Positions 3,410-63,297 are shown, numbered from the stretch's first letter. The stretch: 64,000 bases of DNA from Candidatus Beckwithbacteria bacterium (GCA_026397255.1 JAPLVF010000013.1:251532-315531); one strand, 5' to 3'. Notes: generated by a model not told the origin, from the sequence alone. A program made the numbers and translations.

Positions 3410-5191
3410 AAAAGCTTCCTGAGAGAGATTGACCTTACCCACCCGCTTCATCCGTTTTTTGCCGCGCTTCTGACTGGCTAAAAGCTTGGCTTTGCGGCTT
3501 AAATCGGCGGCGTGGAGTTTAACCGTGACGTCTTTGCGGTAGGCTTTAATCGTTTCCCGGGCTAAAATTTTACCGCCCAAAACTACCTGGATTGGTAGTT
3601 CAAACTGCTGACGGGGAATGGCGGCTTTTAATTTTTTCGCTAATTTTAAGGCTAAGCTGACAGCCGCAGGGCGAACAGTTAAAACTGATAAGGGTTCAAC
3701 CAGCTGACGATTAAGTAAAATTTCCAGTTTAACGATGTCGCTTAAAACAAAACGGGAAAAACGCCAATCAAGGCTGGCAAAACCGGAAGAAACCGATTTT
3801 AAACGATCAAAAAAACCGCTGATTAATTCCCGGAGCGGCATAAAATAAACCAGCTTGACCTGGCTGCCAAAAAATTCCTGGGATTTCAGCTCGGCCCGAT
3901 ACTCGCGGCATAAATCCATCACCCCGCCCAGATAAGTAAGCGGGGTAAACAAAGATAAATCAATATACGGCTCCAGAGTTTGGTTGATTAACGAGGGGTC
4001 GGGAAAATCGGCCGGGCTAAGGATGGAAATAAGTTGGTGATTTTTCTTCAATTCAATCTGGTATTCAACCGACGGACTGGTAGTAATCAGGTTTAAATCA
4101 AATTCCCTTTCCAGACGCTCCTGGACGATCTCGGCGTGCAACAGCCCCTGAAAACCGATTTTAAAACCGCTGCCTAAAACCGCCGAGTTGACGGGATTGT
4201 AAGTAATGCTGGAGTCGGTTAAATGAAATTTTTCCAAAGAGGTTTTTAATTTAATAAAGTCTTGGTTGTCAATTGGATAAAAATCCATAAAGACAACCGG
4301 TAAGGGTTCCTGATATCCCGGCAAAGCGGAAACGGCCGAGCCTGATTCAACAATCGTGTCGCCGACGCGGCAAAGAGAAATATCTTTCAGGCCGGTGGCC
4401 AGATAGCCAACCTCGCCACAGGTTAATTGCTGCGTCGGTTTTAGGCTAGGAGAAAAGTAACCGATTTCCTGAGTTTTAAAGACGGTCGCGTTAGAAAAAA
4501 ATTTAAGCTGGGTAGAGGCAGTAATTTGGCCGTTGACTAAACGGACGCAAGCAATAACGCCGTGATGGGGATGATAAAAAGAGTTAAAAACTAAAGCTTG
4601 CAGGGGGCTGTCCTCCTTCGCTGAAGCTACGGCGGGCGAAGGAATCCGATCAATAACAGCTTTAAGCAATTCCGGTACGCCAGCGCCTGTTTTGGCAGAC
4701 ACTAATAAAATCTCCGAGGCTTTAAAACCGAATGAATCCTGTAATTCCTGCTTAACCCGATCAATTTCGGCATTGGCTAGGTCAATTTTATTAATCACCG
4801 GAATTAATTCCAAATGACTAGCCATGGCTAAATTGGCATTAGCCATTGTCTGGGCCTGAATTCCCTGGGTAGCGTCAACTAATAAAATGGCGCCTTCGCA
4901 AGCATTGAGCGACCGGGAAACTTCGTAGGAAAAATCAACGTGACCGGGGGTATCGATCAAATTTAGAATATAGGAGTTAGCATTTAGCAAATAGCGCATG
5001 CGGACAGGGGCGAGTTTAATGGTGATTCCCCGTTCTTTTTCAATCGGATTAGAGTCCAAGAACCGTTCCTCGAAATCTTTTTTGGCAATCGTACCGGTGG
5101 CTTGCAAAAATCGGTCGGTTAAAGTAGTTTTGCCATGATCGATATGACTGATAACGCAAAAATTTCTAATAGTTGATTGGTAGAGATTCAT
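3389..5191 (-). CDS. lepA: Elongation factor 4 (LepA).
   Basis: N-terminus VISHIDHGKTTLTDRFL (GTPase G1), DTPGHVDF, NKIDL. Length 600 aa and domain order match LepA. Confidence 0.95.
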   Translation of the reverse strand: MNLYQSTIRNFCVISHIDHGKTTLTDRFLQATGTIAKKDFEERFLDSNPIEKERGITIKLAPVRMRYLLNANSYILNLIDTPGHVDFSYEVSRSLNACEGAILLVDATQGIQAQTMANANLAMASHLELIPVINKIDLANAEIDRVKQELQDSFGFKASEILLVSAKTGAGVPELLKAVIDRIPSPAVASAKEDSPLQALVFNSFYHPHHGVIACVRLVNGQITASTQLKFFSNATVFKTQEIGYFSPSLKPTQQLTCGEVGYLATGLKDISLCRVGDTIVESGSAVSALPGYQEPLPVVFMDFYPIDNQDFIKLKTSLEKFHLTDSSITYNPVNSAVLGSGFKIGFQGLLHAEIVQERLEREFDLNLITTSPSVEYQIELKKNHQLISILSPADFPDPSLINQTLEPYIDLSLFTPLTYLGGVMDLCREYRAELKSQEFFGSQVKLVYFMPLRELISGFFDRLKSVSSGFASLDWRFSRFVLSDIVKLEILLNRQLVEPLSVLTVRPAAVSLALKLAKKLKAAIPRQQFELPIQVVLGGKILARETIKAYRKDVTVKLHAADLSRKAKLLASQKRGKKRMKRVGKVNLSQEAFLAVVRR

Positions 5192-9836: not shown

Positions 9837-11318
9837 ATGGACAATATCGGCCTGCAGCCACCATTCACTCCGCCACCAGAAAGACCCTCAGTTACTCTTC
9901 CACCGATTCCGCCGACGACGCCACCAGCACCACCAGCCACTCCACCAGTACAACCACTAGTGCAACCGGAACAACCAATAATCCAACCGCCCCATAATCA
10001 AAGGGCGAAAAAGGCCAAAAAAGTTTTGCCGAAGTTAGCAGTCGGCACACTCTTAGTCGCGCTTTTGGTGGGAGGATTAGTGTTAGGGAAAAACTTAATC
10101 GGGCAAAAAACTAGTGTAGAGAAATTGGCAACCGCCACGATTTGCGAATCGCCTTCGCCATATCCGTATACTCACCCACTTGACTGTGGGGCCCAATGTT
10201 GTAATAAGGACACACAATACTGTTGTACATTTGGTTGTAAAGATAAATCTGATGGCCCTTGCCCCGGTGAAAGCCCAACGACCGGACATTTTGCCAATTC
10301 AGAATGTTTCGAAACCGGCTGCCATGTCAGCGACGCTGACTGGAATAACGGAGTTAGTCCTCTTTGTGTTGTGATGCATTACTGGTGTCCTAATGGAGGA
10401 GCTTCGTGGGATCCAAATGTGTGTGGCGAAGCTGTAAGTGGTTACCAAATAATTGGTAATCGGGTTCAAGAAGCGGTTTTTTCTCAAGATTGTGGTACTG
10501 AACAAATCGATTTAATATGCCAGGGCGTTACGGATCATCCCCATAGAAATCGCCATAAGGGGCCTTGCGCTAGTCCGTCACCGAGCGAACAACCGGCATC
10601 ACCTAGTCCGAGCCCGTCGGTTTCATCACCCAGCCCGAGCCCGTCGTCGTCACTTACAACTATTCCAAATTGCACAAGCTTAATAACAACTGCTGATCTA
10701 AATAATTTGCAAGTAGGAACCGAATATTCTTTCCAATTAACAGCCGGAGGTACTGCTCCAATTACTAGCGTAGAAATGTCTGTTTATGGTAGTAGTTGTT
10801 CGAATAATCTTAAAACATATACTCCACAGACTGTTTCTGGTCCGGGGACTTACACGATTAAATGGACTCCTACCCAAGCAGGTTCGTTTACAGCTTACGG
10901 CAGGATCTGGAACGATGGTGTAGCTGAGTGTCGGGCTGACTGTGTTGATGGTCCACCACGATACTTATGCGCTAATGCCCAAGCGTGTAAATTAACAGGC
11001 ACTGTCACATCACCAACAACCATCAGTTGCGTGGAATTAACGAAAAATACGGCCAACCCTAAATTAAATGACGCTGTGCCTTTTGTTTGCAATGCAGGTT
11101 ATTCTTCACCTTCTCTCGTGGCTTTCTTTAGATACAGCACCAACGGCGGTTCAACTTACAGCGACCGTTTACCTACGAACGGCGTAGTAATAAATCCCGG
11201 CGCTTACCGAGCCTATTATACGATTACTATTGGCCAAATCGGCAACTGGGTTGTCCAATGCCGCATTTGTACCAGCGCGGCGGCGACTACCTGTACTGCT
11301 TGGGGGCAGGCAAATTAA
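9837..11318 (+). CDS. Membrane-anchored, Cys-rich extracytoplasmic protein with a Pro-rich N-terminal tail and (SP)n linker.
   Basis: N-terminus PPFTPPPERPSVTLPPIPPTTPPAPPATPP, then a TM helix, then about 40 Cys in the ectodomain and an internal ASPSPSEQPASPSPSPSVSSPSPSPSSS linker. Confidence 0.55.
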   Translation: MDNIGLQPPFTPPPERPSVTLPPIPPTTPPAPPATPPVQPLVQPEQPIIQPPHNQRAKKAKKVLPKLAVGTLLVALLVGGLVLGKNLIGQKTSVEKLATATICESPSPYPYTHPLDCGAQCCNKDTQYCCTFGCKDKSDGPCPGESPTTGHFANSECFETGCHVSDADWNNGVSPLCVVMHYWCPNGGASWDPNVCGEAVSGYQIIGNRVQEAVFSQDCGTEQIDLICQGVTDHPHRNRHKGPCASPSPSEQPASPSPSPSVSSPSPSPSSSLTTIPNCTSLITTADLNNLQVGTEYSFQLTAGGTAPITSVEMSVYGSSCSNNLKTYTPQTVSGPGTYTIKWTPTQAGSFTAYGRIWNDGVAECRADCVDGPPRYLCANAQACKLTGTVTSPTTISCVELTKNTANPKLNDAVPFVCNAGYSSPSLVAFFRYSTNGGSTYSDRLPTNGVVINPGAYRAYYTITIGQIGNWVVQCRICTSAAATTCTAWGQAN

Positions 11319-11320
11319 CT

Positions 11321-11929
11321 ATGAAAAAAGATAATAAATGGCTATTGTGGGGACTGATTGGCTTTACGGCTATCTTGCTGATAACGGCAATAATTTTATT
11401 CCTGCAGTTAAGGAAACCAACACAGCCCTTGCCGACGCCAAAACCAGTCGCCTCACCGCAAGTTCCGGAAATAAATGTAGCGGGTACGGCTGGTGTCTGT
11501 GAGCTAAGCTTTACGGTGACAGCGTCACCTTCACCCTCACCGAGTCCGGGGACGTCACCTTCACCCTCACCGAGTCCGGGGACGTCACCTTCACCCTCAC
11601 CGAGTCCGGGGACGTCACCACAACCAAACGTTTGTTTTGACACCTGCAGCACAGATGATGAATGTAAGGTGGCTAATTCTGAGTGGAGGTGTATGACTGT
11701 GTCCGGCGATAAGCGCTGTGTTAACCCTAACTGCACGGACGAGACCGACTGTAACTGCAATATCGCTTCCTCGCCTAACCCAACAATTATCGCCTACGCT
11801 TCACCAACTCTTCCACCCCAAACCAAGGGCGGCCAGCCGGTGTTACCGCAAGCGGGTATTTCCGGACCGGCAGTTTTAGGGGTTTCAGCCGGACTGTTGC
11901 TGATGCTGGCCGGGTTGTTGTTGTTTTAA
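11321..11929 (+). CDS. Small surface protein carrying an (SPSPSPSPGT)x3 tandem-repeat linker, a Cys-rich domain and a C-terminal LPQAG plus TM anchor. The start was moved to the ATG at 11321.
   Basis: MKKDNKWLLWGLIGFTAILLITAIILF (TM). Three identical 10-aa repeats encoded by three identical 30-nt units. The protein ends VLPQAGISGPAVLGVSAGLLLMLAGLLLF. Confidence 0.6.
   Translation: MKKDNKWLLWGLIGFTAILLITAIILFLQLRKPTQPLPTPKPVASPQVPEINVAGTAGVCELSFTVTASPSPSPSPGTSPSPSPSPGTSPSPSPSPGTSPQPNVCFDTCSTDDECKVANSEWRCMTVSGDKRCVNPNCTDETDCNCNIASSPNPTIIAYASPTLPPQTKGGQPVLPQAGISGPAVLGVSAGLLLMLAGLLLF
11524..11613 (+). repeat. Three perfect tandem copies of a 30-nt unit (gtcaccttcaccctcaccgagtccggggac), in-frame within the CDS.
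   Basis: Identical 30-mers at 11524-11553, 11554-11583 and 11584-11613. They encode S-P-S-P-S-P-S-P-G-T repeats. Confidence 0.9.
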
Positions 11930-11931
11930 AT

Positions 11932-13134
11932 TCAGCGCCAGGTAGGTAACCAGAACCAATATTTTAGTAAGTTTACAGGTAGTGGTATTGCGGTATTTAA
12001 GGGGTAGAAGAAAATAAAAGTTATAATCGTTATAAATATTATAAATTTTATAATTTTGGCTGGCAGAGCGTTAACCACTTGAGCTAAAATTAAACATAAA
12101 AAGGGCAGGGCGGGCAGATAGTGATGTAAAAACATAATCCGGGGAGAAAAAACGAAAGGAAAAAAGAGAAAGAAATAACAAATCAGAAGAAATAAATTGC
12201 TGCAGAAAATTAAGGAAATTAAACCGCCCCAGAAAACTAACGGGTTGCCAAGATTATAAATATTGGCGACAGAATTTTTAAAATACTCAACATAAAACCA
12301 AACCGGCCGGATTAGAAACGGCCACTGCCAGGCAGAAGACTGATAAGAGTGAGTGGCGGTAAGGTGGGTTTGATACCAAATAATTTGCTTGTGAAGATCA
12401 AAAAAACTGGTCAAGCTGCCGCCGCGGAGAAATAACTGAGAATAAGAGAGAAAATAAATAATCACTGTAATAAGTAATATGTAAACTGTAAACAAAAATT
12501 TTTTGGGAGATCTAATCAGAAAGAAAATTAGGTAAATCGGAAAAAGCAAGACGGCAGAATGTTTGGTGGCCACGGCCAAGCCGGTAAAAATAGCAGTAAG
12601 AAAGAGATTACGATAAGGAGACGCCTTCACATGCGTAAAGGAGTCTCCTTTAATAAATCGACAAAAGAAAGTGAGGGCAAAAATAATCCAGGTAGTCACA
12701 AAAATATCATTCATGGTAATCCGCGACATCGTCAACTGAAGATTGTCAAAAGCAAAAAAAGCGGCAGCCATTAAAGCGATTTTTTTATTTTTAAATAATG
12801 TCAGGGCGAAATAATAAAGGGCGGCAATGGAGATTGTCCCAAAAAGGGCACTGGGGAATCGCCAACCGAAACTGTTATCGCCGAAAATCTTAACTGAGTT
12901 CGCTTGAATTAATTTAGCTAAAGGCGGATGAAGCCAATCATAGGCGGTATTGGGTTCGGGCGCTTTGGCAAAGGGATTATAGGCATCAAGGTTCCCCTGA
13001 CTAATCGCCCGCACGGCCGGAACATGATAAACCTCGTCGAAAACATAGGCAGCCGGGACACCCAAGCGGAAAACCCGCAGGAAAAAACTAACAACGAGCA
13101 ACAACCATAACGCTCTCGTGTAAAATGGTTTCAT
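11932..13134 (-). CDS. GT-C fold membrane glycosyltransferase, GT39/PMT-ArnT-like (protein O-mannosyltransferase family). The start is tentatively placed at MKPFY.
   Basis: A loop-1 motif YVFDEVYHVPA (DE motif) is typical of PMT/GT39. There are more than 10 TM helices. An in-frame palindromic element sits at 12615-12650. The track ORF extends to 13248. Confidence 0.6.
   Translation of the reverse strand: MKPFYTRALWLLLVVSFFLRVFRLGVPAAYVFDEVYHVPAVRAISQGNLDAYNPFAKAPEPNTAYDWLHPPLAKLIQANSVKIFGDNSFGWRFPSALFGTISIAALYYFALTLFKNKKIALMAAAFFAFDNLQLTMSRITMNDIFVTTWIIFALTFFCRFIKGDSFTHVKASPYRNLFLTAIFTGLAVATKHSAVLLFPIYLIFFLIRSPKKFLFTVYILLITVIIYFLSYSQLFLRGGSLTSFFDLHKQIIWYQTHLTATHSYQSSAWQWPFLIRPVWFYVEYFKNSVANIYNLGNPLVFWGGLISLIFCSNLFLLICYFFLFFPFVFSPRIMFLHHYLPALPFLCLILAQVVNALPAKIIKFIIFITIITFIFFYPLNTAIPLPVNLLKYWFWLPTWR
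12615..12650. repeat. Palindromic hairpin element family A, copy 1 (AAGGAGACGCCTTCACATGCGTAAAGGAGTCTCCTT), located inside the GT39-like CDS.
   Basis: Read directly from the sequence. Translated in-frame on the minus strand as KGDSFTHVKASPY. Confidence 0.85.
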
Positions 13135-14566
13135 GCTGTCTATTGTAGCAAGTTTTGTTTTTTGGCTTGGCTGGGTTGGGTTTTTTACGATTACCTGGAG
13201 CCATGTTCTGGTGAAAGAGGCAGCGGGCTGGTGGTCAAGTTGCGCCAATTGTTGGGGCGATTGGTCGGCCCACCTGGCTTATACGACCAGTTTTGCCTAC
13301 GGCCACAATTTCCCGCCACAACTGCCGATAATGGCCGGCCACAAATTCAGTTATCCGTTTCTGATCGACTGGTTGTCAGCCATACTCGTGAAATTGGGCT
13401 TGGATTTAAGATGGGCATTAATTATCCCCGGCTGGATTCTATCGTTAATTTTGATTTGGCTGATTGTCAGATTGGGGCAAAAATTAACCGGCAGCTTGGC
13501 GGTGGGCCGGTTGGCCTCATTGATTTTTTTATTTAACGGCGGCAAGAAATTTTTAAATATTGTGGTAGCCCAATTAATGCCGCAAAGAGGCTGGTTGTTG
13601 GGCATGAGTTTAGGGATAATTATTTACTTATTGTTTTGGCAGTGGCTGGAAAAAAAGCAAAAAAAATATTTATTAATTGCCGGGATAATTGCCGGCTGCC
13701 TACCCTTAATTCATTTACATTCATTGGCGGCAGTGATTTTTGTAGCCGGGTGGTTAGTAATATTTAATTTCTCCCGGCAGTGGCTGTATTTTTTCCTACC
13801 ATTGGCTTTGTTGGCCACACCCCAGATATTAAGTTTTTATTCTCTGGGATTACATTTAATTAAGTTTAACCCGCAGTGGTTAGGTTTAGACCTAGGCTTA
13901 GTGATAATTTTAGGATTGATCGGTTTTATCAAGGCGGATAAAAGACTTAAAAAATTTGTTCTGCCTTTTTGGGGATTATTTATTTTGGCTAGTTTATTTG
14001 TTTTCCAGCCATTTGATTGGGACAATACCAAGATTTTTGACCATTGGTATTTAATGCTGGCAATTTTAGCCAGCCTCGCCTTACAAAAAATGTGGCAAAA
14101 ATCCTGGTGGTTAAAAATTGGGGCAGGAATTTTGTTTGGTTTAATGATTTGGCCAGGTTTGGCGGAAACGATTAAATTTAACCAGTACCAAAAAAATAAA
14201 TATTTGTTTTTCGGTAATGAAGAGCTGGCTTTAGCCGAAGTGGGTAAAAAAAACATTCCCCCGCAGGCAGTGGTTTTAACCGCCAGTAATCATAACCATT
14301 GGCTGCCAACTTTAACCGGGAGAAAAATTGTTTTAGGTTATACCGCCTGGTTATGGTCCTATGGCGTTAATTACCAACAAAGAGAGGCAGATGTAAAATT
14401 AATGTATCAAACGGGGAGCAAATCATTGCTGGAGAAATATAAAGTTAATTATGTGTTAATCGGGCCGGAAGAACGCCGTCAATTTAGGGTAAATGAAGCT
14501 TGGTTTAACAAGAATTTTCCGGTAATTGAATTGAACAGAGAGAATAAACTTTACCAAATCAACTGA
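13133..14566 (+). CDS. Polytopic membrane protein, probably a GT-C-type glycosyltransferase. The start is ambiguous.
   Basis: 477 aa with roughly 12 TM helices and a C-terminal soluble domain. The start codon is interleaved with the divergent gene's start at 13132-13135. Confidence 0.5.
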   Translation: MLSIVASFVFWLGWVGFFTITWSHVLVKEAAGWWSSCANCWGDWSAHLAYTTSFAYGHNFPPQLPIMAGHKFSYPFLIDWLSAILVKLGLDLRWALIIPGWILSLILIWLIVRLGQKLTGSLAVGRLASLIFLFNGGKKFLNIVVAQLMPQRGWLLGMSLGIIIYLLFWQWLEKKQKKYLLIAGIIAGCLPLIHLHSLAAVIFVAGWLVIFNFSRQWLYFFLPLALLATPQILSFYSLGLHLIKFNPQWLGLDLGLVIILGLIGFIKADKRLKKFVLPFWGLFILASLFVFQPFDWDNTKIFDHWYLMLAILASLALQKMWQKSWWLKIGAGILFGLMIWPGLAETIKFNQYQKNKYLFFGNEELALAEVGKKNIPPQAVVLTASNHNHWLPTLTGRKIVLGYTAWLWSYGVNYQQREADVKLMYQTGSKSLLEKYKVNYVLIGPEERRQFRVNEAWFNKNFPVIELNRENKLYQIN

Positions 14567-42848: not shown

Positions 42849-42875
42849 AAAAACCCCGGCGGAAAACCGGGGTTT
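42849..42875 (-). terminator. Rho-independent terminator for groESL: AAA-CCCCGG-cggaaaa-CCGGGG-TTT, with a T5 run on the minus strand.
   Basis: 6-bp GC stem with a 7-nt loop. The flanking A and T tracts make it read as a terminator in both directions. Confidence 0.6.
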
Positions 42876-44850: not shown

Positions 44851-44936
44851 AAAAATCCTCCTTAAATCCGCCAGCTGGCGGATTATCACTCTATTATAAC
44901 AAGTGCTATTTTAAGGGCGTAAAGATTTCTTGTCAA
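44851..44936 (-). promoter_or_regulatory. groESL promoter region. It contains TTGACA (44936-44931), a 17-nt spacer and TAAAAT (44913-44908). A CIRCE-like inverted repeat ATAGCACTT-N9-GAGTGATAA lies at 44909-44883, and its spacer carries TTATAAT. The 20-nt palindrome AATCCGCCAGCTGGCGGATT at 44885-44866 sits in the 5' UTR.
   Basis: Reverse-complement of 44848-44950 reads ...TTGACAagaaatctttacgccctTAAAATagcacttgttataatagagtgataATCCGCCAGCTGGCGGATttAAGGAGGatttttATG. CIRCE consensus TTAGCACTC-N9-GAGTGCTAA is matched at 15 of 18 positions. Confidence 0.5.
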
Positions 44937-44951
44937 GGGCAGTTTCCAATA

Positions 44952-46196
44952 TTATTGAGATTTTATTATTTTGGTGGTGGAGATTTGGGGGTTGTGAGGC
45001 AGGACGATGACGACGCGGCCGCCGGAGCACTGCATAGTCCGGCGCTTGACGGCAAGGTTTGGAGTGCTACTAGAAACAGCCAAAATATCCGGCTTAATTT
45101 GATTAATTAAAGCGCTATGGTCTTCGTCAGAATCGAATTTTTCCGGAAGAGGAAAAACTTCATCGCTAAGCTTTAATTTTTGTAAATTTTTTATTCTTAC
45201 TTCTAATTTATTAATTGGCCGGCCGGGACCTTTAAGCTGGCGAACACGCTGGTCGGCTTCGACGCCAACTAATAAAATACCGCCTTGGTTTTTTGCGGCC
45301 AAAAGCAGTTTTTTATGCTCAATGTGTAAGATGTCGAAAACGCCGGTAACGAGAATTATTTTTGTAGCCTTATGATATTTTTTTAAAACAATCTCTCCGG
45401 TCGGCCGGGGATGAAAAAAAGCAAAGTGACGGCCGATTTTTTCGTGGGTAATTTTTCGCTTCATGTAAAAGTATTGAAATTTAAAAGCTAAAGATTCAAA
45501 AAAATCCATTAATAATCCAATAAGGTCCGACCTTTTTTCAGATTTGTCTTTTAAGGTCGGACCTTGAGGAAAGGAGGGGCCTTGGAAAAAGTTGGGTAAG
45601 TATTGTTTGTACCATGAGTTGGCTGTTAAAAAATTTTGATAGGCTTGGTCACGATTATACAGCGGTTTTAATTGGCAAAGCTCATGGGCGGTATATAGGT
45701 TTTGTTGGGCTAAGATTAAAGCGGATTCGTCCAAAAAAAGATTGAGACAAAAACGGTTGTTAATTTTGTGGCCGCGGCGAAGACGAAAAAATAATAAAGC
45801 AGTTAATAATAAACGAGCTAACCAAAGACGGTTTTTACTAGTAATAATTAATAAATCAATGTCGTCATTTTCAATGCTATTATTCATGCTTAAAGCGCCG
45901 GTAACACCAACTAATTTTATCCAGGGAATCAGGGAAAAAAGCCACTTAATTTGCTTAAGTTTCTGCCACTTTAATTGACTAAAGTGCCAACGTTTTTTTC
46001 TTAAACTCACCAGTTTTTGCCGACCGGGAAGATGAAAATAGGAAGAAGTTGTCCAATAAGGAGACACCTTCGCATTCGCAAAGGAGTCTCCTTTAATGGG
46101 GGAAAATTTAATGACTTCTTCTCTGGTTAAGGGATAGTCAAAAATATCGGCATAGGCAACGGGGGCTAAAATTCCCCGATTAGTTAGCCACGCCAT
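44952..46196 (-). CDS. Two-domain protein with an N-terminal nucleotidyltransferase-like region and a C-terminal cytidylyltransferase-like (RfaE-II/TagD-type HxGH-fold) domain. The start was moved to MAWLTN. It contains an in-frame palindromic element.
   Basis: C-terminal ILVTGVFDILHIEHKKLL...RPINKLEVR (nucleotidyl transfer motif). N-terminal DDIDLLIITSKNRLWLARLL. The element at 46058-46093 encodes KGDSFANAKVSPYW. Confidence 0.5.
   Translation of the reverse strand: MAWLTNRGILAPVAYADIFDYPLTREEVIKFSPIKGDSFANAKVSPYWTTSSYFHLPGRQKLVSLRKKRWHFSQLKWQKLKQIKWLFSLIPWIKLVGVTGALSMNNSIENDDIDLLIITSKNRLWLARLLLTALLFFRLRRGHKINNRFCLNLFLDESALILAQQNLYTAHELCQLKPLYNRDQAYQNFLTANSWYKQYLPNFFQGPSFPQGPTLKDKSEKRSDLIGLLMDFFESLAFKFQYFYMKRKITHEKIGRHFAFFHPRPTGEIVLKKYHKATKIILVTGVFDILHIEHKKLLLAAKNQGGILLVGVEADQRVRQLKGPGRPINKLEVRIKNLQKLKLSDEVFPLPEKFDSDEDHSALINQIKPDILAVSSSTPNLAVKRRTMQCSGGRVVIVLPHNPQISTTKIIKSQ
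46058..46093. repeat. Palindromic hairpin element family A, copy 2 (AAGGAGACACCTTCGCATTCGCAAAGGAGTCTCCTT), located inside the CDS 44952-46196.
   Basis: Read directly from the sequence. Identical to copy 3 including the 5' flank CCAAT. Translated in-frame as KGDSFANAKVSPYW. Confidence 0.85.
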
Positions 46197-53556: not shown

Positions 53557-53600
53557 AAGGAGACACCTTCGCATTCGCAAAGGAGTCTCCTTTTAAAATA
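53557..53600 (+). terminator. Intrinsic terminator of valS, formed by copy 3 of the palindromic element (AAGGAGAC-A-CCTT...AAGG-A-GTCTCCTT) followed by TTTTAAAATATTT.
   Basis: The hairpin lies 9 nt after the valS stop and is followed by a T-run. Confidence 0.6.
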
Positions 53601-53642: not shown

Positions 53643-53662
53643 GATCCGCCAGCTGGCGGATC
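53643..53662. repeat. Perfect 20-nt palindrome GATCCGCCAGCTGGCGGATC, family B copy 2.
   Basis: Read directly from the sequence. Related copies at 44866-44885 (AATCCGCCAGCTGGCGGATT) and 59969-59984 (TCCGCCAGCTGGCGGA). Confidence 0.85.
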
Positions 53663-53988: not shown

Positions 53989-54712
53989 GCTCGGACTTAG
54001 TTTCAGGCTTGGCAGCTTCTTTTTTAGGCTCAGGTTTGACACCAGGCTTAGGCTCCTTCGCCAAGGCTTCGGCGCCCGAAGCGGGTTTGGCTTCACCTTC
54101 AGCCGGAACAGCGGCTTCGACAACTGGCGCGGCAACGACTTCTTCTTTGGTCGGCTCTTCAATCTTAACTACCAACTCATCTAAGTTCTCGGACATTATT
54201 TTAACTTTGGCGGTATCGACCTTAATATCTTTCAAACTAATCCCCTGGCCGATTTCTGCCAATTTAGAAACGTCAATCATGAATTTTTCCGGTAAGTCCC
54301 GGGGTAGGGCTTCAACTTCTGTCTCATGAATTAGCTGAATGAGAACGCCGCCCTTGGTGGTGGCCGGGGCAATGCCGCTAACCTCAACCGGAATGGCGAC
54401 AACAACTTTCTTGGTCAGGTCAACCTGGTGAAAGTCCGCGTGTAAAATTTCGTCAGTAACCGGATGTTGTTGAACTGAATGAATTAAGACCGGGCGTGGC
54501 TTTGCTTCTTTGATTATTTCCAGGTCTAAAATGGCGGTTTCTCCGGCTTTGGCGAAAACCGCCTTAAATTCTTTGGCAGGAATTTGAATGGATAAAGATT
54601 TAACATCTTTACCATAAATATTGGCGGGAATAATCCCCTGGCGGCGGAGTTGTTTAACCTTACGGCCGGAAATTTTTCTTGGTTCAGCTTTTAATTTCAG
54701 ATTGTTTGGCAT
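53969..54712 (-). CDS. rplY: 50S ribosomal protein L25 / general stress protein Ctc, with a Lys/Glu/Pro/Ala-rich C-terminal extension.
   Basis: MPNNLKLKAEPRKISGRKVKQLRRQGIIPANIYGK... is the bL25 N-domain. The C-terminal 60 aa are low-complexity (EAKPASGAEALAKEPKPGVKPEPKKEAAKPE). Confidence 0.85.
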   Translation of the reverse strand: MPNNLKLKAEPRKISGRKVKQLRRQGIIPANIYGKDVKSLSIQIPAKEFKAVFAKAGETAILDLEIIKEAKPRPVLIHSVQQHPVTDEILHADFHQVDLTKKVVVAIPVEVSGIAPATTKGGVLIQLIHETEVEALPRDLPEKFMIDVSKLAEIGQGISLKDIKVDTAKVKIMSENLDELVVKIEEPTKEEVVAAPVVEAAVPAEGEAKPASGAEALAKEPKPGVKPEPKKEAAKPETKSEPKAEKK

Positions 54713-54748: not shown

Positions 54749-54784
54749 TTAAGGTGACGCCTTCACATTCGTAAAGGAGTCACC
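54749..54784. repeat. Palindromic hairpin element family A, copy 4 (AAGGTGACGCCTTCACATTCGTAAAGGAGTCACCTT), intergenic. It is a likely terminator of the 1039-aa gene and lies upstream of rplY.
   Basis: Read directly from the sequence. Carries compensatory stem changes (GGTGAC/GTCACC versus GGAGAC/GTCTCC in copies 1-3). Confidence 0.8.
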
Positions 54785-54795
54785 TTTCCCATTTT

Positions 54796-58103: not shown

Positions 58104-58523
58104 CTAGATTAGGTGGTCGAGGGCAAGGTTGACTAGGCGGTCGGCGGCGGTGTTTTTTTCGCGGGGAATGTGGGCGTATTTAATTGAACCGCCAACTTTA
58201 GCTTCCAGCTCGCGGAGAAAAATAATTTTTTGACGCAACTGGGTGTCTTTAATTTTCCATAAACCGTTCAGTTGGTTAACCACAAGTTGCGAGTCGAGGT
58301 GAAAAACGATTTCTGATTGATGATTAACGAATTCTGATTTTTCAGAAAGCCACTCCAGGGCGACAATAACGGCTTGGTATTCAGCCAAATTGTTGGTGGC
58401 AATTCCGATAGTTTTACCAAAAGAGTGAATAATTGTTCCAGAAGCGTTTTTAATGACAAAGCCTACGGCTGCCGGGCCAGGATTGCCCCGACTGCCCCCG
58501 TCGGTATAAATATTGAGAGTCAT
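58104..58523 (-). CDS. rnhA: Ribonuclease HI.
   Basis: MTLNIYTDGGSRGNPGPAAVGFVI...HIPREKNTAADRLVN carries the RNase H DEDD residues. Confidence 0.85.
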   Translation of the reverse strand: MTLNIYTDGGSRGNPGPAAVGFVIKNASGTIIHSFGKTIGIATNNLAEYQAVIVALEWLSEKSEFVNHQSEIVFHLDSQLVVNQLNGLWKIKDTQLRQKIIFLRELEAKVGGSIKYAHIPREKNTAADRLVNLALDHLI

Positions 58524-59044
58524 TCTTGTTTGGGCCCCACTTCGCTAGAAGGGGCCTCCTTCGCTGAAGCTACGGCGGCCGAAGCAGGTTTAACAATTAA
58601 GTGGCGATTGCGGCCTTCGCCTTCGGATTCAGTGGCCACCTTAGGATCGGTGCTTAAAAAGGCGTGAATCGTGTGCCGCTCAAAAGGATTTAAATTAAAT
58701 AAAGCCATGGGCTGACCGGAAAACTTAACCCGTTGGGCAGTGTCTTGGGCCAGCTTAATCAAGGTTTCTTCGCGTTTTTGGCGATAGTCCCCGATGTTCA
58801 CCACCAACTTGCACCACTCGCCTTTTTGCCGATACAACAACAGATTTAACATTAGCTGTAGAGCGCTGATGGTGTCGCCGTGATAGCCAATCAGCATACC
58901 CATTTCCTGATCAGCCAACTCTAAGTCTAGTAAGTAGCTGTCCGGCTCAGGAGAAGAAATGGTAATTTTGGTTGGTTCAACCCCCAACTGACTTAAAAGT
59001 TGTTTGGTTAGTTTGGCAATATTTTTTTCAGTGCTTTTTTCCAT
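58520..59044 (-). CDS. khpB: KhpB/Jag (KH plus R3H RNA-binding protein).
   Basis: KH region GMLIGYHGDTISALQ and R3H region NLNPFERHTIHAFL. Conserved position after yidC. Confidence 0.8.
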   Translation of the reverse strand: MEKSTEKNIAKLTKQLLSQLGVEPTKITISSPEPDSYLLDLELADQEMGMLIGYHGDTISALQLMLNLLLYRQKGEWCKLVVNIGDYRQKREETLIKLAQDTAQRVKFSGQPMALFNLNPFERHTIHAFLSTDPKVATESEGEGRNRHLIVKPASAAVASAKEAPSSEVGPKQE

Positions 59045-59816
59045 AATTTAAGGTTAGTTGCTGAACCAGCATAATAAGAGAGAAAACCAACCAATAAAGC
59101 ACCAACCCTGAAGGAAATTTAAAACCAATAAAAATTGTCATTAACGGAAACAAATAAAGCATTTGCGTCTGCATGGCAGTGGCCATGTCGTCGGCTTGTC
59201 CGGGGGTTTTTTGAGCAACAACGGCATTTTTTTTGGCAGCCGGCATCATTAATTTGGAAGAAAGAAACTGGACAACGGCGGCGGCAATTAAGAAAATGCC
59301 GGGAAATTTGTCAATGGTCAGGCCAAGGATTTTAATGGCGGGAATAGAAAATAAGTCCGGCTGGGTGAGGTTAAGATATAAAAACCGGGAATTTAAAGAA
59401 AAATCCAGGGGAAGTTTTAAGACAGGATAAAGAATATTATTAAGATTAGTAACGAGGTCTCCCCGACTTTGCAAAACCTGATTAAAGGCCTGATAAAGAG
59501 CAATTAAAACGACAATCTGAATAATTTGGGGCAGGCAGCCGGCGGCTGGGTTAAGACCGTGGCTTTGAAAAAGCTCTAGTTGTTTTTTAGCAAACACTTG
59601 TTTGTCTTTGCCATATTTTTCTTTAAGTTTCGCCAGCTCGGGTTGAAGTTCTTTCATTTTTTGGCCGGTTTTCAAAGAAGGAAGAGTGAGGGGGGTTAAG
59701 ACCAGCCGGATTAAAACAGTCAAACCAATAATGGCCAAGCCAAGATTGTGGCCCAGTAATTCGTATAAAAAAATCAAGGCGTTAACTAAAGGATGATAAA
59801 AAAAGGTGTTCCACAT
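59028..59816 (-). CDS. yidC: Membrane protein insertase YidC, short form.
   Basis: 262 aa with 5 TM helices, LTLPSLKTGQKMKELQPEL..., in conserved synteny. Confidence 0.85.
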   Translation of the reverse strand: MWNTFFYHPLVNALIFLYELLGHNLGLAIIGLTVLIRLVLTPLTLPSLKTGQKMKELQPELAKLKEKYGKDKQVFAKKQLELFQSHGLNPAAGCLPQIIQIVVLIALYQAFNQVLQSRGDLVTNLNNILYPVLKLPLDFSLNSRFLYLNLTQPDLFSIPAIKILGLTIDKFPGIFLIAAAVVQFLSSKLMMPAAKKNAVVAQKTPGQADDMATAMQTQMLYLFPLMTIFIGFKFPSGLVLYWLVFSLIMLVQQLTLNYGKKH

Positions 59817-59819
59817 AGT

Positions 59820-60017
59820 TTAATTCAAGGGGTCGTAACCACCCTTTGACCAGGGGTGACACTTAATAATTCTTTTAAGGCTCAAAAAGCCACCTTTTAA
59901 TATACCATATTTGGCAATAGCCTCGTAGGAATATTGAGAACAGGTAGGAATAAAACGGCAGGAGCGGGTCCGCCAGCTGGCGGATTGGTAAAAACGGATT
60001 AATTTAAGAGCGAGCAT
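59820..60017 (-). CDS. yidD: Membrane protein insertion efficiency factor YidD.
   Basis: LIRFYQ...[19 protein letters not shown]... The conserved RFISPLLGPR-like segment is replaced by SASWRTRS, which is encoded by the CCGCCAGCTGGCGG palindrome. Confidence 0.8.
59969..59984. repeat. Palindrome family B copy 3 (TCCGCCAGCTGGCGGA), located inside the yidD CDS.
   Basis: Read directly from the sequence. Confidence 0.85.
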
Positions 60018-60337
60018 GATTGTAGCAACTGCAAAAGATCGGCCTGAATGACAGAAAGCGGCCGGTTAAGAATTGTGGTGTTGGCTAAAAATAATAGTTC
60101 TGTGTTGGGCTTAAGCTTGGTTAAATATGGCCTAATGGCTTCACGAACCAGGCGTTTGTGGCGGTTGCGAACAACGGCCAGGCGGCTGACCTTGACGGGA
60201 ACAATAATACCAATTAAGGGTTGGTTGTTTTTTCGAGAATTAATTTTTAAAGTAAAGAATTGAGAAGAAAAGCTTTGTTTAGATTTAAGTAAAATCGGGA
60301 GGCGGTGGCCTGGTAGGCGATAAGCGTGAGAAAACAT
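59999..60337 (-). CDS. rnpA: RNase P protein component.
   Basis: Basic 112-aa protein ([15 protein letters not shown]). Its start overlaps the rpmH stop (TAATG). Confidence 0.8.
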
Positions 60338-60480
60338 TAAACAGCCAATTTCTGGCGGCCTTTAAGCCGGCGGCGCTTGAGAACTTTACGACCAGAAAAA
60401 GTTTTTAATCGCTCACGGAAGCCGTGCGTCCGACGCCGGCGGATTTTAGAGGGTTGATAGGTGCGTTTAGTCTTAGCCAT
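60337..60480 (-). CDS. rpmH: 50S ribosomal protein L34.
   Basis: Manual translation gives [47 protein letters not shown]. Not in the track because it is under 60 aa. Confidence 0.85.
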
Positions 60481-60589
60481 TAGGTTAAGAATAATATATT
60501 TTGATGAATTTGGCAATCTGGTTTGTATCTTTCGGGTTATCTTGGTGTTGACAGGGTGTGGATAACTTTATATCTTTAGTCAGACGACT
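60481..60589. promoter_or_regulatory. Divergent rpmH/dnaA control region. The dnaA promoter has TTGACA (60548-53) and TATATC/TATCTT near 60569-76, with a perfect DnaA box (TGTGGATAA = TTATCCACA) at 60557-60565 between the -35 and -10.
   Basis: Read directly from the sequence. A DnaA box inside its own promoter implies autoregulation. Confidence 0.5.
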
Positions 60590-62002
60590 ATGGACAAGGG
60601 TTTTTTGTGGACGGCGATTTTATCAGAGATGGAGCTTAATTTGTCTCCGGGAAATTTTGCGACCTGGATCGGGCCGATTCGTTGTTTAGGTTTAAAAGAA
60701 ATTAATAAAAACGGGTTTTGCCTGGAATTGGGTTGCCCATCGGTATTTCATAAAAACCAGGTGGGAGAAAGATATTTAGGCCAAATTCAGGCAATGGCGG
60801 AAAAAAATCTGGGAAAAAGGTGCGAGATTAAGCTGAATATTGAGCAAAAAGAGGAAAAAAAAGTCAAGAGAGAAACAAATGACTTGTTCTCCGTAGATGC
60901 AGCGAAACTGGCGGACGAGGCCTACCGGCGGACAGCGGCAAAAGCCGGATTGACGTTGGGATTTACTTTTGAAAACTTTGCGGTTTCTTCCTCAAACGAA
61001 GTGGCTTACGCGGCAGCCAAAACCGCAGCCAACAAGCCCGGGGAAATTTACCATTTAATTTTTATTTTCGGGGGGGTGGGGGTGGGAAAAACCCACTTAA
61101 TGCAGGCGGTGGGACATGAGATTTTGAAAAAAAATCCGGACACCTCTTTGGTTTACTGCACCGGAGAAGAGTTTACCAACGAAATTATTGAGGCAATCCG
61201 GAATAAAACCACGGCCTTGTTCCGGCAGAAATACCGTAAGGCTAAGATGTTGTTTTTAGACGATGTCCAGTTTATTGCCGGCAAAGAAAAGGTCCAGGAA
61301 GAATTTTTTCATACTTTTAATGCCGTGCAAAAAGAGGGGGGGCAAATAATTTTAACCTCTGACCGCCTGCCAACAGAGATTTCCGGACTGGAAGACCGCC
61401 TAAGGTCAAGGTTTGAGGGGGGATTAACCGTAGATATCCAAAAGCCGGAGTTTGAATTAAGAACAGCGATTTTATTAATCAAGGCCCAGCAGAAAAAAAT
61501 TGAGCTGCCAATGAGAGTGGCCCAGGTGGTGGCCGCCAACGTCGAGTCTGTCCGGGGACTAGAAGGAATATTAATGCGACTGTACGGCGAACAACAGACA
61601 AGAAAAGAGCCCTTAACTGAAGAGTTGGCCATGGCTTTGTTAAACAGGATCAACGGGGAGGCAAAACAACTCAAAAACAGACTGAACCCGAAACAGATTT
61701 TAGGGGCCGTTTCTGATTATTACCAGGTAAAACCGATGGATTTAAGGGGGGAAAGCCGGCTAAGGGCGTTGGTTTTAGCCCGCCAGGTGGCGATGTATTT
61801 ATTAAGAAGGGAGTTGTTCTTACCGCAAACTGCCGTAGGGGCGCTTTTGGGTGGAAGAGACCACACCACTATTATTCACGGAGAGGGGAAGATTGCTAAA
61901 GATTTGGGAACAAACGAACAGCTGAGGCTGGACGTTACCAACATCAGAAAAAATATTTATAAACAAAGTGGACAACAAGGAGGGTTATCAACCAACCAAT
62001 AG
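60590..62002 (+). CDS. dnaA: Chromosomal replication initiator DnaA.
   Basis: GGVGVGKTHLMQAVGHE (Walker A), LFLDDVQFIAGKE, and the C-terminal HTH GGRDHTTIIH. Confidence 0.95.
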   Translation: MDKGFLWTAILSEMELNLSPGNFATWIGPIRCLGLKEINKNGFCLELGCPSVFHKNQVGERYLGQIQAMAEKNLGKRCEIKLNIEQKEEKKVKRETNDLFSVDAAKLADEAYRRTAAKAGLTLGFTFENFAVSSSNEVAYAAAKTAANKPGEIYHLIFIFGGVGVGKTHLMQAVGHEILKKNPDTSLVYCTGEEFTNEIIEAIRNKTTALFRQKYRKAKMLFLDDVQFIAGKEKVQEEFFHTFNAVQKEGGQIILTSDRLPTEISGLEDRLRSRFEGGLTVDIQKPEFELRTAILLIKAQQKKIELPMRVAQVVAANVESVRGLEGILMRLYGEQQTRKEPLTEELAMALLNRINGEAKQLKNRLNPKQILGAVSDYYQVKPMDLRGESRLRALVLARQVAMYLLRRELFLPQTAVGALLGGRDHTTIIHGEGKIAKDLGTNEQLRLDVTNIRKNIYKQSGQQGGLSTNQ

Positions 62003-62166
62003 GTTTATCCACAGTTTATCAACAAAAAAATCCACCGAAAAAGACGGGGTTGTCAACCGGTATTTTTAGCAGTGAAATAAGGGGAAAAATCGATTATAAT
62101 ACACTTATCAACAAAGACTATTAATATTACTACTATTTTTAATTCTAATTAGTAATAAGGAGAGAT
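62003..62166. other. Candidate oriC. DnaA boxes TTATCCACA (62005-13), TTATCAACA (62016-24 and 62105-13) and TTGTCAACC (62050-58), plus an AT-rich unwinding element (62111-62160) immediately upstream of dnaN.
   Basis: Read directly from the sequence. The canonical dnaA-oriC-dnaN arrangement. Confidence 0.65.
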
Positions 62167-63297
62167 ATGAAAGTTTCTTTACTGCAGGAGAATTTAGCCA
62201 AAGGAGTGGGGGTAGTCAGTCGGGCAGTAGCCACAAAAACACAATTGCCGGTATTGGCAAATATTTTAATAACAACTGATCAAGGGAAGCTAAAATTAAC
62301 CACAACAAACTTAGAAACAGGAATAAATCTATGGCTAGGCGGAAAAGTAGAAAAAGAAGGGAAAATAACGATCCCGGCCAGGATTTTAAACGAAGCAATC
62401 AGCTCATTGCCTGCCGGGACAGTGGAGTTGATAGCCGAGGCAGATAAGTTAAAAATTAGCTGTGGGAAATACAAGGCGGAAATTAACGGAATTAACGCGG
62501 AAGAATTCCCGGCGGTGCCGAGTTTAAAAAACAAAAAAACCAGCGGGCAAGGGATTAAAATCGACAGGGAAATAATTGAGACAGGAATAAATCAGGTGGC
62601 GGTGGCAGCGGCAACGGACGAAGGCCGCCCGGTGTTTACGGGAGTAAAAATGGAATTAGGAGAAGGGGGTTTACGTTTAGCGGCAACAGATGGATACCGC
62701 TTAAGCGTTAAAACAATCAGCGGACTGAAGGGGATAAAAAAGAAAAAAGAAATGATTGTGCCGGCGCGAGCATTAATGGAATTAATCAGGGTTTTAGGGG
62801 CGGCGGAAACGGAAGTAAAAGAGGTAATTTTTGAGGCAACAGAAGAAGAAAAACAACTGATTTTGTCTTTTGGTGAAGGCGAGGTGGTAACGAGGCTGTT
62901 AGAGGGGGAATTCCCGGACTTTGACAAAATTGTACCGCAGACACACACGACCACAATTGAATTAAATACCGAAGAATTAACCCAGGCGGTGAGGGCGGCG
63001 GCGGTGTTTGCCAAAGACAGCGCCAATATTGTGAAGTTTAAAATTACTGACGGCGGGCTATTGATTTCAGCCAATACGCCTCAAGTGGGAGGCAATGAAG
63101 TCGAAGTGGCGGGCAAAAAAACCGGAGAGACGGGGGAAATTGCTTTTAACAGCCGCTATTTAATTGAGATGCTGAATGCGATTGGGGCGAAAGAACTAAA
63201 ATTAGAAATTTCCGGGCCATTAAATCCGGGAGTGTTTAAGCCGTTAGGCGACAACAGCTTTTTGCATATTATTATGCCGGTGAGAGTTCAGGCGTAG
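62167..63297 (+). CDS. dnaN: DNA polymerase III beta sliding clamp.
   Basis: 376 aa with a three-domain clamp pattern. AAGGAG RBS 6 nt upstream. Confidence 0.95.
   Translation: MKVSLLQENLAKGVGVVSRAVATKTQLPVLANILITTDQGKLKLTTTNLETGINLWLGGKVEKEGKITIPARILNEAISSLPAGTVELIAEADKLKISCGKYKAEINGINAEEFPAVPSLKNKKTSGQGIKIDREIIETGINQVAVAAATDEGRPVFTGVKMELGEGGLRLAATDGYRLSVKTISGLKGIKKKKEMIVPARALMELIRVLGAAETEVKEVIFEATEEEKQLILSFGEGEVVTRLLEGEFPDFDKIVPQTHTTTIELNTEELTQAVRAAAVFAKDSANIVKFKITDGGLLISANTPQVGGNEVEVAGKKTGETGEIAFNSRYLIEMLNAIGAKELKLEISGPLNPGVFKPLGDNSFLHIIMPVRVQA

Follow-up and report, generated by a model that had tools for sequence, protein, structure and literature searches.

The locus described here raises the question of how a short palindrome can stand in the middle of conserved protein genes, and whether the nucleic acid or the encoded peptide is the unit that is kept. 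It lies in a 64-kb stretch (hereafter the window) of one metagenome-assembled genome (MAG) of Candidatus Beckwithbacteria, a member of the Patescibacteria or candidate phyla radiation (CPR), in which 56 open reading frames (ORFs) were annotated with Pfam. A hairpin-forming element of 36 nt is read in frame there within the gene of a cytidylyltransferase fusion protein and again within that of a membrane glycosyltransferase, and it recurs between genes. Repeats of this kind are scattered over genomes of Beckwithbacteria and related Microgenomates, some lying between genes and others in frame within them. We consider it about 70% probable that they form a family of ~36–48 nt palindromic repeats that is selfish or neutral, resembles the repetitive extragenic palindromic sequences (REPs) and the Rickettsia palindromic elements (RPEs), and is translated where it is tolerated.

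The window was compared with orthologs of the glycosyltransferase, which belongs to family GT39 (loci L003-L007, L009 and L013), and with orthologs of the cytidylyltransferase fusion (L011, L012 and L002). L002 comes from another Patescibacteria MAG, and a further locus, L001, is a JGI metagenome contig. All comparative evidence is between genomes that have diverged by at least 20%.

Copies of the element and their host genes

The host genes and the hairpins of the window are the following:

44952-46196, minus strand: host gene 1, a cytidylyltransferase fusion of 414 aa, nucleotidyltransferase-like in its N-terminal part and with a CTP_transf_like domain at the C-terminus (residues 283-412)
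11932-13248, minus strand: host gene 2, a GT39/PMT-family membrane glycosyltransferase, ORF of 438 aa
46058-46093, minus strand: genic copy of the element inside host gene 1, stem core AGAC/GTCT; the plus strand reads AAGGAGACACCTTCGCATTCGCAAAGGAGTCTCCTT
12615-12650, minus strand: genic copy inside the GT39/PMT gene
53557-53592, minus strand: intergenic copy, 9 nt past the stop codon of the valyl-tRNA synthetase gene
54751-54786, minus strand: intergenic copy between the DUF4012/epimerase gene (ends at 54796) and the L25 gene (starts at 54712)
45522-45565, minus strand: hairpin of a second type, AAGGTCCGACCTT-N18-AAGGTCGGACCTT plus the tail ATTGGA, read in frame within host gene 1

A degenerate pattern for the 36-nt element finds four copies in the window, compared with 0.00 expected in 100 shuffles; two are genic and two intergenic, and all four share one absolute orientation. 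The first-pass annotation had claimed that no stop interrupts the reading through the copy at 46058 and that the same element occurs in the same orientation and frame in the GT39-like gene, and sequence and translation confirm both. On the minus strand, the former is translated as residues K35-W48 (KGDSFANAKVSPYW) in the context ...FSPI-KGDSFANAKVSPYW-TTSSY..., its conserved sense-strand tail ATTGGA occupying 46052-46057, and the latter as ...CRFI-KGDSFTHVKASPY-RNLFL.... The GT39 peptide corresponds to K200-Y212 of the 438-aa ORF and to K162-Y174 of the NCBI model (P0121), which has 400 aa and begins with MKPFY; the Pfam PMT match of this protein (residues 49-244) covers the element. Both host proteins have identical NCBI counterparts, which are encoded on a contig of 358,919 bp.

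The intergenic copy at 53557 is identical to that at 46058-46093 over 43 nt and, while it keeps the absolute orientation of the other copies in the window, runs antisense to the plus-strand genes that flank it. The copy at 54751 carries a compensated stem change (AAGGTGAC/GTCACCTT). The second type of hairpin at 45522-45565 has the same architecture with a longer loop and is translated as QGPTLKDKSEKRSDL, residues 211-225 of the host gene 1 protein. Hairpins are sparse overall (~1 per 13 kb), and the 9.3 kb following dnaN contained no copy. The ~5% of the window that is non-coding holds two of its five hairpins, as would be expected if selection removes most genic insertions; in L002, one of three hairpins is intergenic. 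Genic copies are unusually frequent in these small samples.

Separate assemblies from NCBI, ENA, JGI and Logan yielded members of the family, which occupy orthologous positions between flanks that have diverged. Searches by pattern were less productive: the exact first pattern had no match in species-representative genomes or in viral contigs, and the looser pattern scan and the metagenome scan yielded one locus each. A protein search with a tripled 17-aa motif returned a single non-significant match, the motif being too short to reach significance against 5.8 billion sequences.

The genic copies lie within coding sequence

An in-frame element near the 5' end of a predicted gene may reflect a wrongly called start, and the first-pass annotation had accordingly considered a downstream start that would turn the copy at 46058 into an element of the 5' untranslated region or an intergenic one, with its in-frame reading an artefact of ORF calling. 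The annotated start at ATG 46196, from which an NCBI protein (P0001) identical to that of host gene 1 is derived, does overlap the upstream gene by 17 nt, the open frame extends further to 46289, and many REPs at predicted N-termini have turned out to be extragenic (Di Nocera et al. 2013, PMC3733652). Against this stand the 34 residues upstream of the element, which align with 24 homologs, share the motif AYADIFDYPLT..E with invariant Y15, F19 and E27, and form helices in the AlphaFold model with block values of the predicted local distance difference test (pLDDT) of 85-87. Since the upstream residues are conserved and modelled as confident helices, the start must be placed upstream of the element. 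The long stretch without methionine that had been noted after the element is also present, the next Met being residue 104 of 414, which falls inside the conserved nucleotidyltransferase core, and the GT39 copy stands in mid-gene within the Pfam match. The downstream start is therefore highly improbable, and the copy at 46058 lies in the coding sequence that begins at ATG 46196.

Genic copies add 9-15 residues, about 13 in the two host genes of the window, and these lie in loops or linkers. The AlphaFold models, otherwise confident, show both window peptides as loops of low confidence. The GT39 model, with a predicted template modelling score (pTM) of 0.79, has a helix at 180-200, coil at 201-210 and a helix at 211-228, with pLDDT below 50 at 203-208; as modelled, the element peptide K200-Y212 is a loop between transmembrane helices. 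For the cytidylyltransferase fusion (pTM 0.73), K35-W48 falls in the coil 32-45, whose block has a pLDDT of 62-64 vs 85-87 in the flanking blocks, and the peptide of the second hairpin (211-225) coincides with the least confident loop of the model (206-223, pLDDT <50).

A conserved hairpin and a variable peptide

The folding energies of the window copies range from -18 to -27 kcal/mol, and their z-scores relative to shuffled sequences from -4.8 to -7.7. The hairpin has two tiers, an outer stem and an inner stem separated by a 1x1 mismatch and closed by a loop, and its sense-strand consensus is (TTA)AAGG-NNNN-N-CCTTTRC-loop-GYGAAGG-N-N'N'N'N'-CCTT-ATTGG(A). It comprises a core of 36 nt and reaches ~48 nt with flanks; ATTGG or ATCGG follows on the sense strand in nearly all copies, usually continued by A/T-A-T, and TTA often precedes. 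In an alignment of nine copies (window, four; GT39 orthologs, three; L001 and L002, one each), all 135 of 135 cells of the 15-pair structure are paired, compared with 40-58% in controls with slid partners, and 6 of the 15 pairs have changed on both sides. While the AAGG/CCTT ends and the inner CCTT/AAGG are invariant, the 4-bp core between them is hypervariable yet always complementary (AGAC/GTCT, TGAC/GTCA, TCCG/CGGA, ACGC/GCGT and ACTC/GAGT). A single genome can hold several of these cores: the window has AGAC, TGAC and TCCG, and L006 has ACGC and TCCG. In seven of nine copies, a U.G wobble is retained in the inner stem on the sense strand of the host genes, which makes the sense-strand RNA the more stable one in 14 of 15 copies, by 3-6 kcal/mol.

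The peptide behaves differently. It alters radically with the stem core (GDS..SPY, GPF..GPY, GRS..RPY) while base pairing is always retained, and the same DNA occurs in non-coding positions. Of the reading frames, only KG is open in each of the four window copies, and we had considered that this single frame (KG...SPY) might be the only one used; this was rejected, as copies in L002 (SKDSPLRSEGESLL, twice) and L001 (RRLLCIGKGVSL and AKESPLHSLLSLQRRLLYK) are read in the other two sense frames. The conserved unit is thus the nucleic acid of the hairpin and not the peptide, because the peptide varies with the core, identical DNA is non-coding elsewhere and other frames are used. That KG-x-S-F...K-x-S-P-Y-W is a motif selected at the protein level, with an incidental palindrome, could account for the use of the same frame at all GT39 sites and at the 46058 site; given peptides that change under retained pairing, non-coding copies of identical DNA and unrelated peptides from other frames in other genes, we regard it as very improbable.

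Occupied and empty sites in orthologs

The GT39 family allows a direct comparison of occupied and empty sites. Five orthologs at 72-77% identity lack the segment (P0124, P0126, P0128, P0129 and P0131), whereas P0123, P0125, P0127 and P0130 carry a variant segment at the same place. At the DNA level, site 1 is empty in L003, which reads TTT TAT CGG | AAA AAT CTC (FFYR|KNLFLT), and filled in the window, L004, L005, L006 and L007 with the cores AGAC, TCCG, AGAC, ACGC and TCCG, respectively; the net gain of the window over the empty ortholog is 15 codons. At site 2, the window itself is empty, as are L003 and L004; L006, L007 and L009 carry a hairpin there, with 42-45 nt standing in place of ~15 nt. 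A 10-aa remnant of the element persists in L008. Judged from these homologs, the GT39 segment is a lineage-specific insertion. The expectation that the palindrome would prove to be such an insertion located in a loop was thus borne out by the alignments together with the AlphaFold models; moreover, carriers of the segment have the hairpin, and not a segment devoid of an element-like nucleotide signature.

Of 120 GT39 homologs, 21 contain the peptide signature dictated by the hairpin, [KQ]G-x-[STPA]-[FL]...K-x-x-P-[YC]-[WRQ], which falls in three loop regions that separate hydrophobic segments and is present in up to three copies per protein. All three sites directly follow hydrophobic helices. 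One GT39 gene (L013, 1504-2011) contains three intact hairpins, two of which stand at different sites and are identical at 33 of 34 positions, while the third departs from them in one compensated pair. Directly upstream of one of the intact hairpins stands a decayed half-copy (CAAGGTCTTTCCCTA), which suggests re-insertion next to older remnants.

In the cytidylyltransferase family, the site at 46058 is a variable linker where some homologs carry unrelated sequence. The same linker holds an intact hairpin with the core ACTC in L011, a decayed half-copy that does not fold in L012 and a hairpin of a different family in L002. Each ortholog has two to five in-frame hairpins, of at least three families overall, and each of the orthologs in L011, L012 and L002 contains one or two relatives of the hairpin at 45522-45565 (AGGGTCCGACCCT...).

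Probable turnover and strand orientation

The similarity of the elements does not follow that of the genes. The GT39 genes of the window and L005 are the most divergent pair, with 66% nucleotide identity over 366 shared codons and 44.5% at third positions; their hairpin cores are nevertheless identical at 38 of 39 positions. In the closest pair, L004 and L007 (80%), the outer core is shared and the inner stem and loop differ. In these alignments, element similarity is decoupled from the phylogeny of the host gene. Together with near-identical paralogs, remnants and different families in one linker, this decoupling points to turnover, in which elements spread within genomes, undergo re-insertion or conversion where a site is tolerant or preferred, and decay. 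Taken together, these observations do not agree with one ancient insertion that has evolved in place.

At the DNA level, 16 genic copies were analyzed, and every one of them runs in the sense direction of its host gene, an orientation that a filter against stop codons also favours. In addition, all five window hairpins lie on one absolute strand. The gene set of the origin region is found at 58520-63297 and in the adjoining locus L010: dnaA and dnaN are encoded on the plus strand, and jag, yidC and rnpA on the minus strand. The GC skew nevertheless does not change sign at dnaA, being positive to either side of this gene and over the 10 kb that follow dnaN. This pattern agrees with a monotonic G/C disparity across the whole genome that was reported for Beckwithbacteria and relatives and was taken as a possible reflection of unidirectional replication (PMC7143001). 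It is therefore possible that the orientation of the element is linked to the replication strand, as in hairpin elements that move via single-stranded DNA. A test of replication strand against transcription by GC skew was confounded, the short contigs being dominated by the composition of the host gene.

Explanations of the repeat

According to the explanation that we favour, the repeat would spread within a genome as a selfish or neutral element. Genic insertions would persist only with an open reading frame and in a structurally tolerant loop, where the hairpin would simply be translated, and copies would later decay or be overwritten by newer ones. The most likely route, more weakly inferred, would be a single-stranded hairpin intermediate recognised by some enzyme, as suggested by the covarying stem, the one-sided tail, the lack of target-site duplication and the uniform strand orientation.

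Several points weigh against this explanation. Pfam annotation of the 56 ORFs of the window revealed no transposase, no REP-associated tyrosine transposase (RAYT/Y1_Tnp) and no other mobilising candidate. No target-site duplication is present at the two sites that can be compared in the empty and the filled state, where the net length changes are 27, 30 and 45 nt; both features speak against simple cut-and-paste insertion. A TATCGN repeat at GT39 site 1 was considered as a target-site duplication and is better explained as the element's own tail, which follows unrelated copies too. Random insertion followed by a filter explains the exclusively sense orientation of the genic copies only partly. 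The perfect compensated pairing, the U.G wobble and the more stable sense RNA could equally mean selection for a function of the hairpin. Finally, the evidence is comparative, with neither active transposition nor strain-level polymorphism observed, and translation of the element peptides is inferred from the open frame and the conserved flanks.

The alternative that has to be taken most seriously, unlikely as we judge it, is that the hairpin is a selected structural signal whose genic copies are functional and not merely tolerated. At the RNA level this could be a stem that stabilises the mRNA or is processed by an RNase, or a translational pause just past a transmembrane helix; at the DNA level it could be single-stranded DNA on the C-rich strand in a lineage with strand asymmetry. 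Complete pairing with compensatory changes, the retained wobble with its effect on sense-strand stability, the sense orientation of every genic copy and the near-identity of the hairpins of the window and L005 in otherwise divergent genes are all compatible with such a signal, as are the position of the three GT39 sites directly behind hydrophobic helices and the location of five hairpins on one strand in a lineage with a reported monotonic GC skew. Against it, many close orthologs have no hairpin, decayed remnants that no longer fold persist in otherwise intact genes, and hairpins of different families occupy the same linker in different orthologs. The location in loops is predicted by tolerance alone. 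Nor do the intergenic copies, both within ~10 nt of a stop codon, correspond to canonical terminators or to an Rfam family: intrinsic termination was rejected, as the terminator scan calls no copy and no T-run directly follows the stem, and in L002 (2060-2110) the element behind the groEL stop codon is followed a few bases on by the true terminator, a separate CCCCGG...CCGGGG hairpin with a T-run. The groEL gene of the window likewise has its own terminator hairpin (42851-42875). The only Rfam match in the window is a tRNA, and permissive matches over the copies reached 14-21 bits vs cut-offs of 55-195.

A more elaborate proposal is more doubtful still, namely that the hairpins constitute a strand-specific structural code maintained by selection, in which the hypervariable 4-bp core determines the specificity for a co-evolving protein. 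One version would have mRNA stems behind transmembrane helices or domain boundaries pause the ribosome and aid membrane insertion or folding; in another, single-stranded DNA hairpins on the C-rich strand would be connected with the way in which Beckwithbacteria-like genomes replicate, which is unusual and possibly unidirectional. Signals for DNA uptake have also to be weighed, as the window contains PilN and PilO genes and the lineage has competence and pilus genes. In other bacteria, uptake sequences are found in coding regions and often as inverted pairs. The presence of several cores per genome, the low density of the hairpins, and the covariation of a loop and an inner stem that an uptake word would not need leave this reading with hardly any credibility. 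An artefact of assembly or sequencing has nothing specific in its favour beyond the general observation that chimeric reads can yield hairpins, and the recovery of family members at orthologous positions in independent assemblies from four sources, within diverged flanks, makes it practically negligible.

Relation to known palindromic repeats

In the first-pass annotation, the element had been called RPE-like, which holds as an analogy of behaviour and fails as an assignment to that family. RPEs measure 105-146 bp, form a long stem-loop with terminal inverted repeats of ~12 bp and encode ~30-50 residues (Ogata et al. 2000, via PMC2229807 and PMC10969869). Like them, the present element is palindromic and occurs both between genes and fused in frame into conserved genes, being absent from orthologs; several families per genome, several insertions per gene, tolerant positions and host proteins that apparently still function complete the resemblance. 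In contrast to RPEs, it has only 36-48 nt and encodes 9-15 residues, its hosts are Patescibacteria and not Alphaproteobacteria, and there is no sequence relationship, the distinction from RPE-1 to RPE-10 being made by description, without alignment to their consensus sequences. The short RPE-4 and RPE-6 carry a CGTC tag (PMC3733652), which is absent here as a constant feature; CGTC is incidental and arises only in the copies with the mismatch base C (12615 and 54751).

The REPs are similar in size, being imperfect palindromes of 20-40 nt that are repeated and have a short motif conserved at one end (Di Nocera et al. 2013, PMC3733652). They are likewise small dispersed units, of which some lie wholly inside ORFs and are translated, several families occur per genome, and mobility through single-stranded hairpins has been hypothesised. 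In contrast, the present element lacks a constant GTAG/CGTC tag, its end being ATTGG/ATCGG (CCAAT on the other strand), and its copies are singletons and not head-to-head or tail-to-tail dimers. The two-tier hairpin with its hypervariable core, and the much stronger concentration of copies in the loops of particular genes, set the element further apart. REPs often flank a RAYT (an IS200/IS605-type Y1 transposase), and the 64 kb of this genome covered by the window contain none. Most REPs lie outside genes and near their 3' ends; of the five window hairpins, two are intergenic and stand close to a stop codon. [quoted passage not shown] The present element is one third of that length and shows no duplication. 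Short G+C-rich elements that colonise protein genes are also found in yeast mitochondria, where GC-cluster or 'byp' hairpins break the frame and the ribosome bypasses them; here, in contrast, the element is in frame and free of stops, so that ordinary translation suffices.

A full-text literature search for palindromic repeats, REPs or MITEs in CPR, Patescibacteria or Microgenomates returned only mentions of CRISPR or unrelated ones. Within the searchable literature, the family therefore appears to be undescribed so far. It is a very short in-frame palindromic repeat for which we found no earlier report in this lineage, of a kind known from the RPEs of Rickettsia and from intragenic REPs.

Other repeats and neighbouring genes

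A 30-nt repeat, CTTCG[CG]CCGCCGTAGCTTCAGCGAAGGAGG on the coding strand, shares the motif CCTTCGC/GCGAAGG with the main element. It is found at 4612-4641 and 58555-58584, identical at 29 of 30 positions, in the unrelated genes of LepA (PSPAVASAKED, at the boundary of the GTPase domain and domain 2) and Jag/KhpB (ASAAVASAKEA, in the C-terminal tail), with a weaker copy at 54052-54081 in the tail of the L25 gene, and is probably another family of in-frame repeats. In the ORF at 11258-11929, whose product is probably secreted or anchored in the membrane, three exact tandem 30-nt units (11523-11619) encode SPSPSPGT repeats.

The perfect palindrome ATCCGCCAGCTGGCGGAT occurs twice, at 44865-44884 between a strong promoter-like site (TTGACA-17-TAAAAT, 44936-44908) and the start of groES, and at 53643-53662, a few bases upstream of the TTG (53668) with which the gene of a TPR-like membrane protein probably starts. 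We regard this palindrome as a candidate for a shared operator, for example of a heat-shock regulon. Just beyond the right edge of the window, after dnaN, L010 (3744-6298) carries VirB4/TraG-like (AAA_10, P-loop_TraG) and TraC-like genes, which suggests a conjugative or integrated element beside the origin region.

Implications

The reduced genomes of CPR bacteria are generally described as poor in mobile DNA. A related genome, Ch65, was reported to contain no mobile-element genes at all (PMC7143001). Here, tiny hairpin repeats have colonised the loops of conserved proteins, with up to three in one glycosyltransferase. Part of the lineage-specific insertions and low-confidence loops of CPR proteins may therefore derive from repeats and not from adaptation, and masking of such segments is advisable in annotation, homology search and structure prediction. 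The repeats can also be used as presence/absence markers for strain tracking, and their uniform strand orientation, together with the G/C asymmetry, provides a handle on how hairpins spread without an obvious transposase. The behaviour known from RPEs and intragenic REPs is thereby extended to an uncultivated and very different branch of the bacteria, and to a smaller element.

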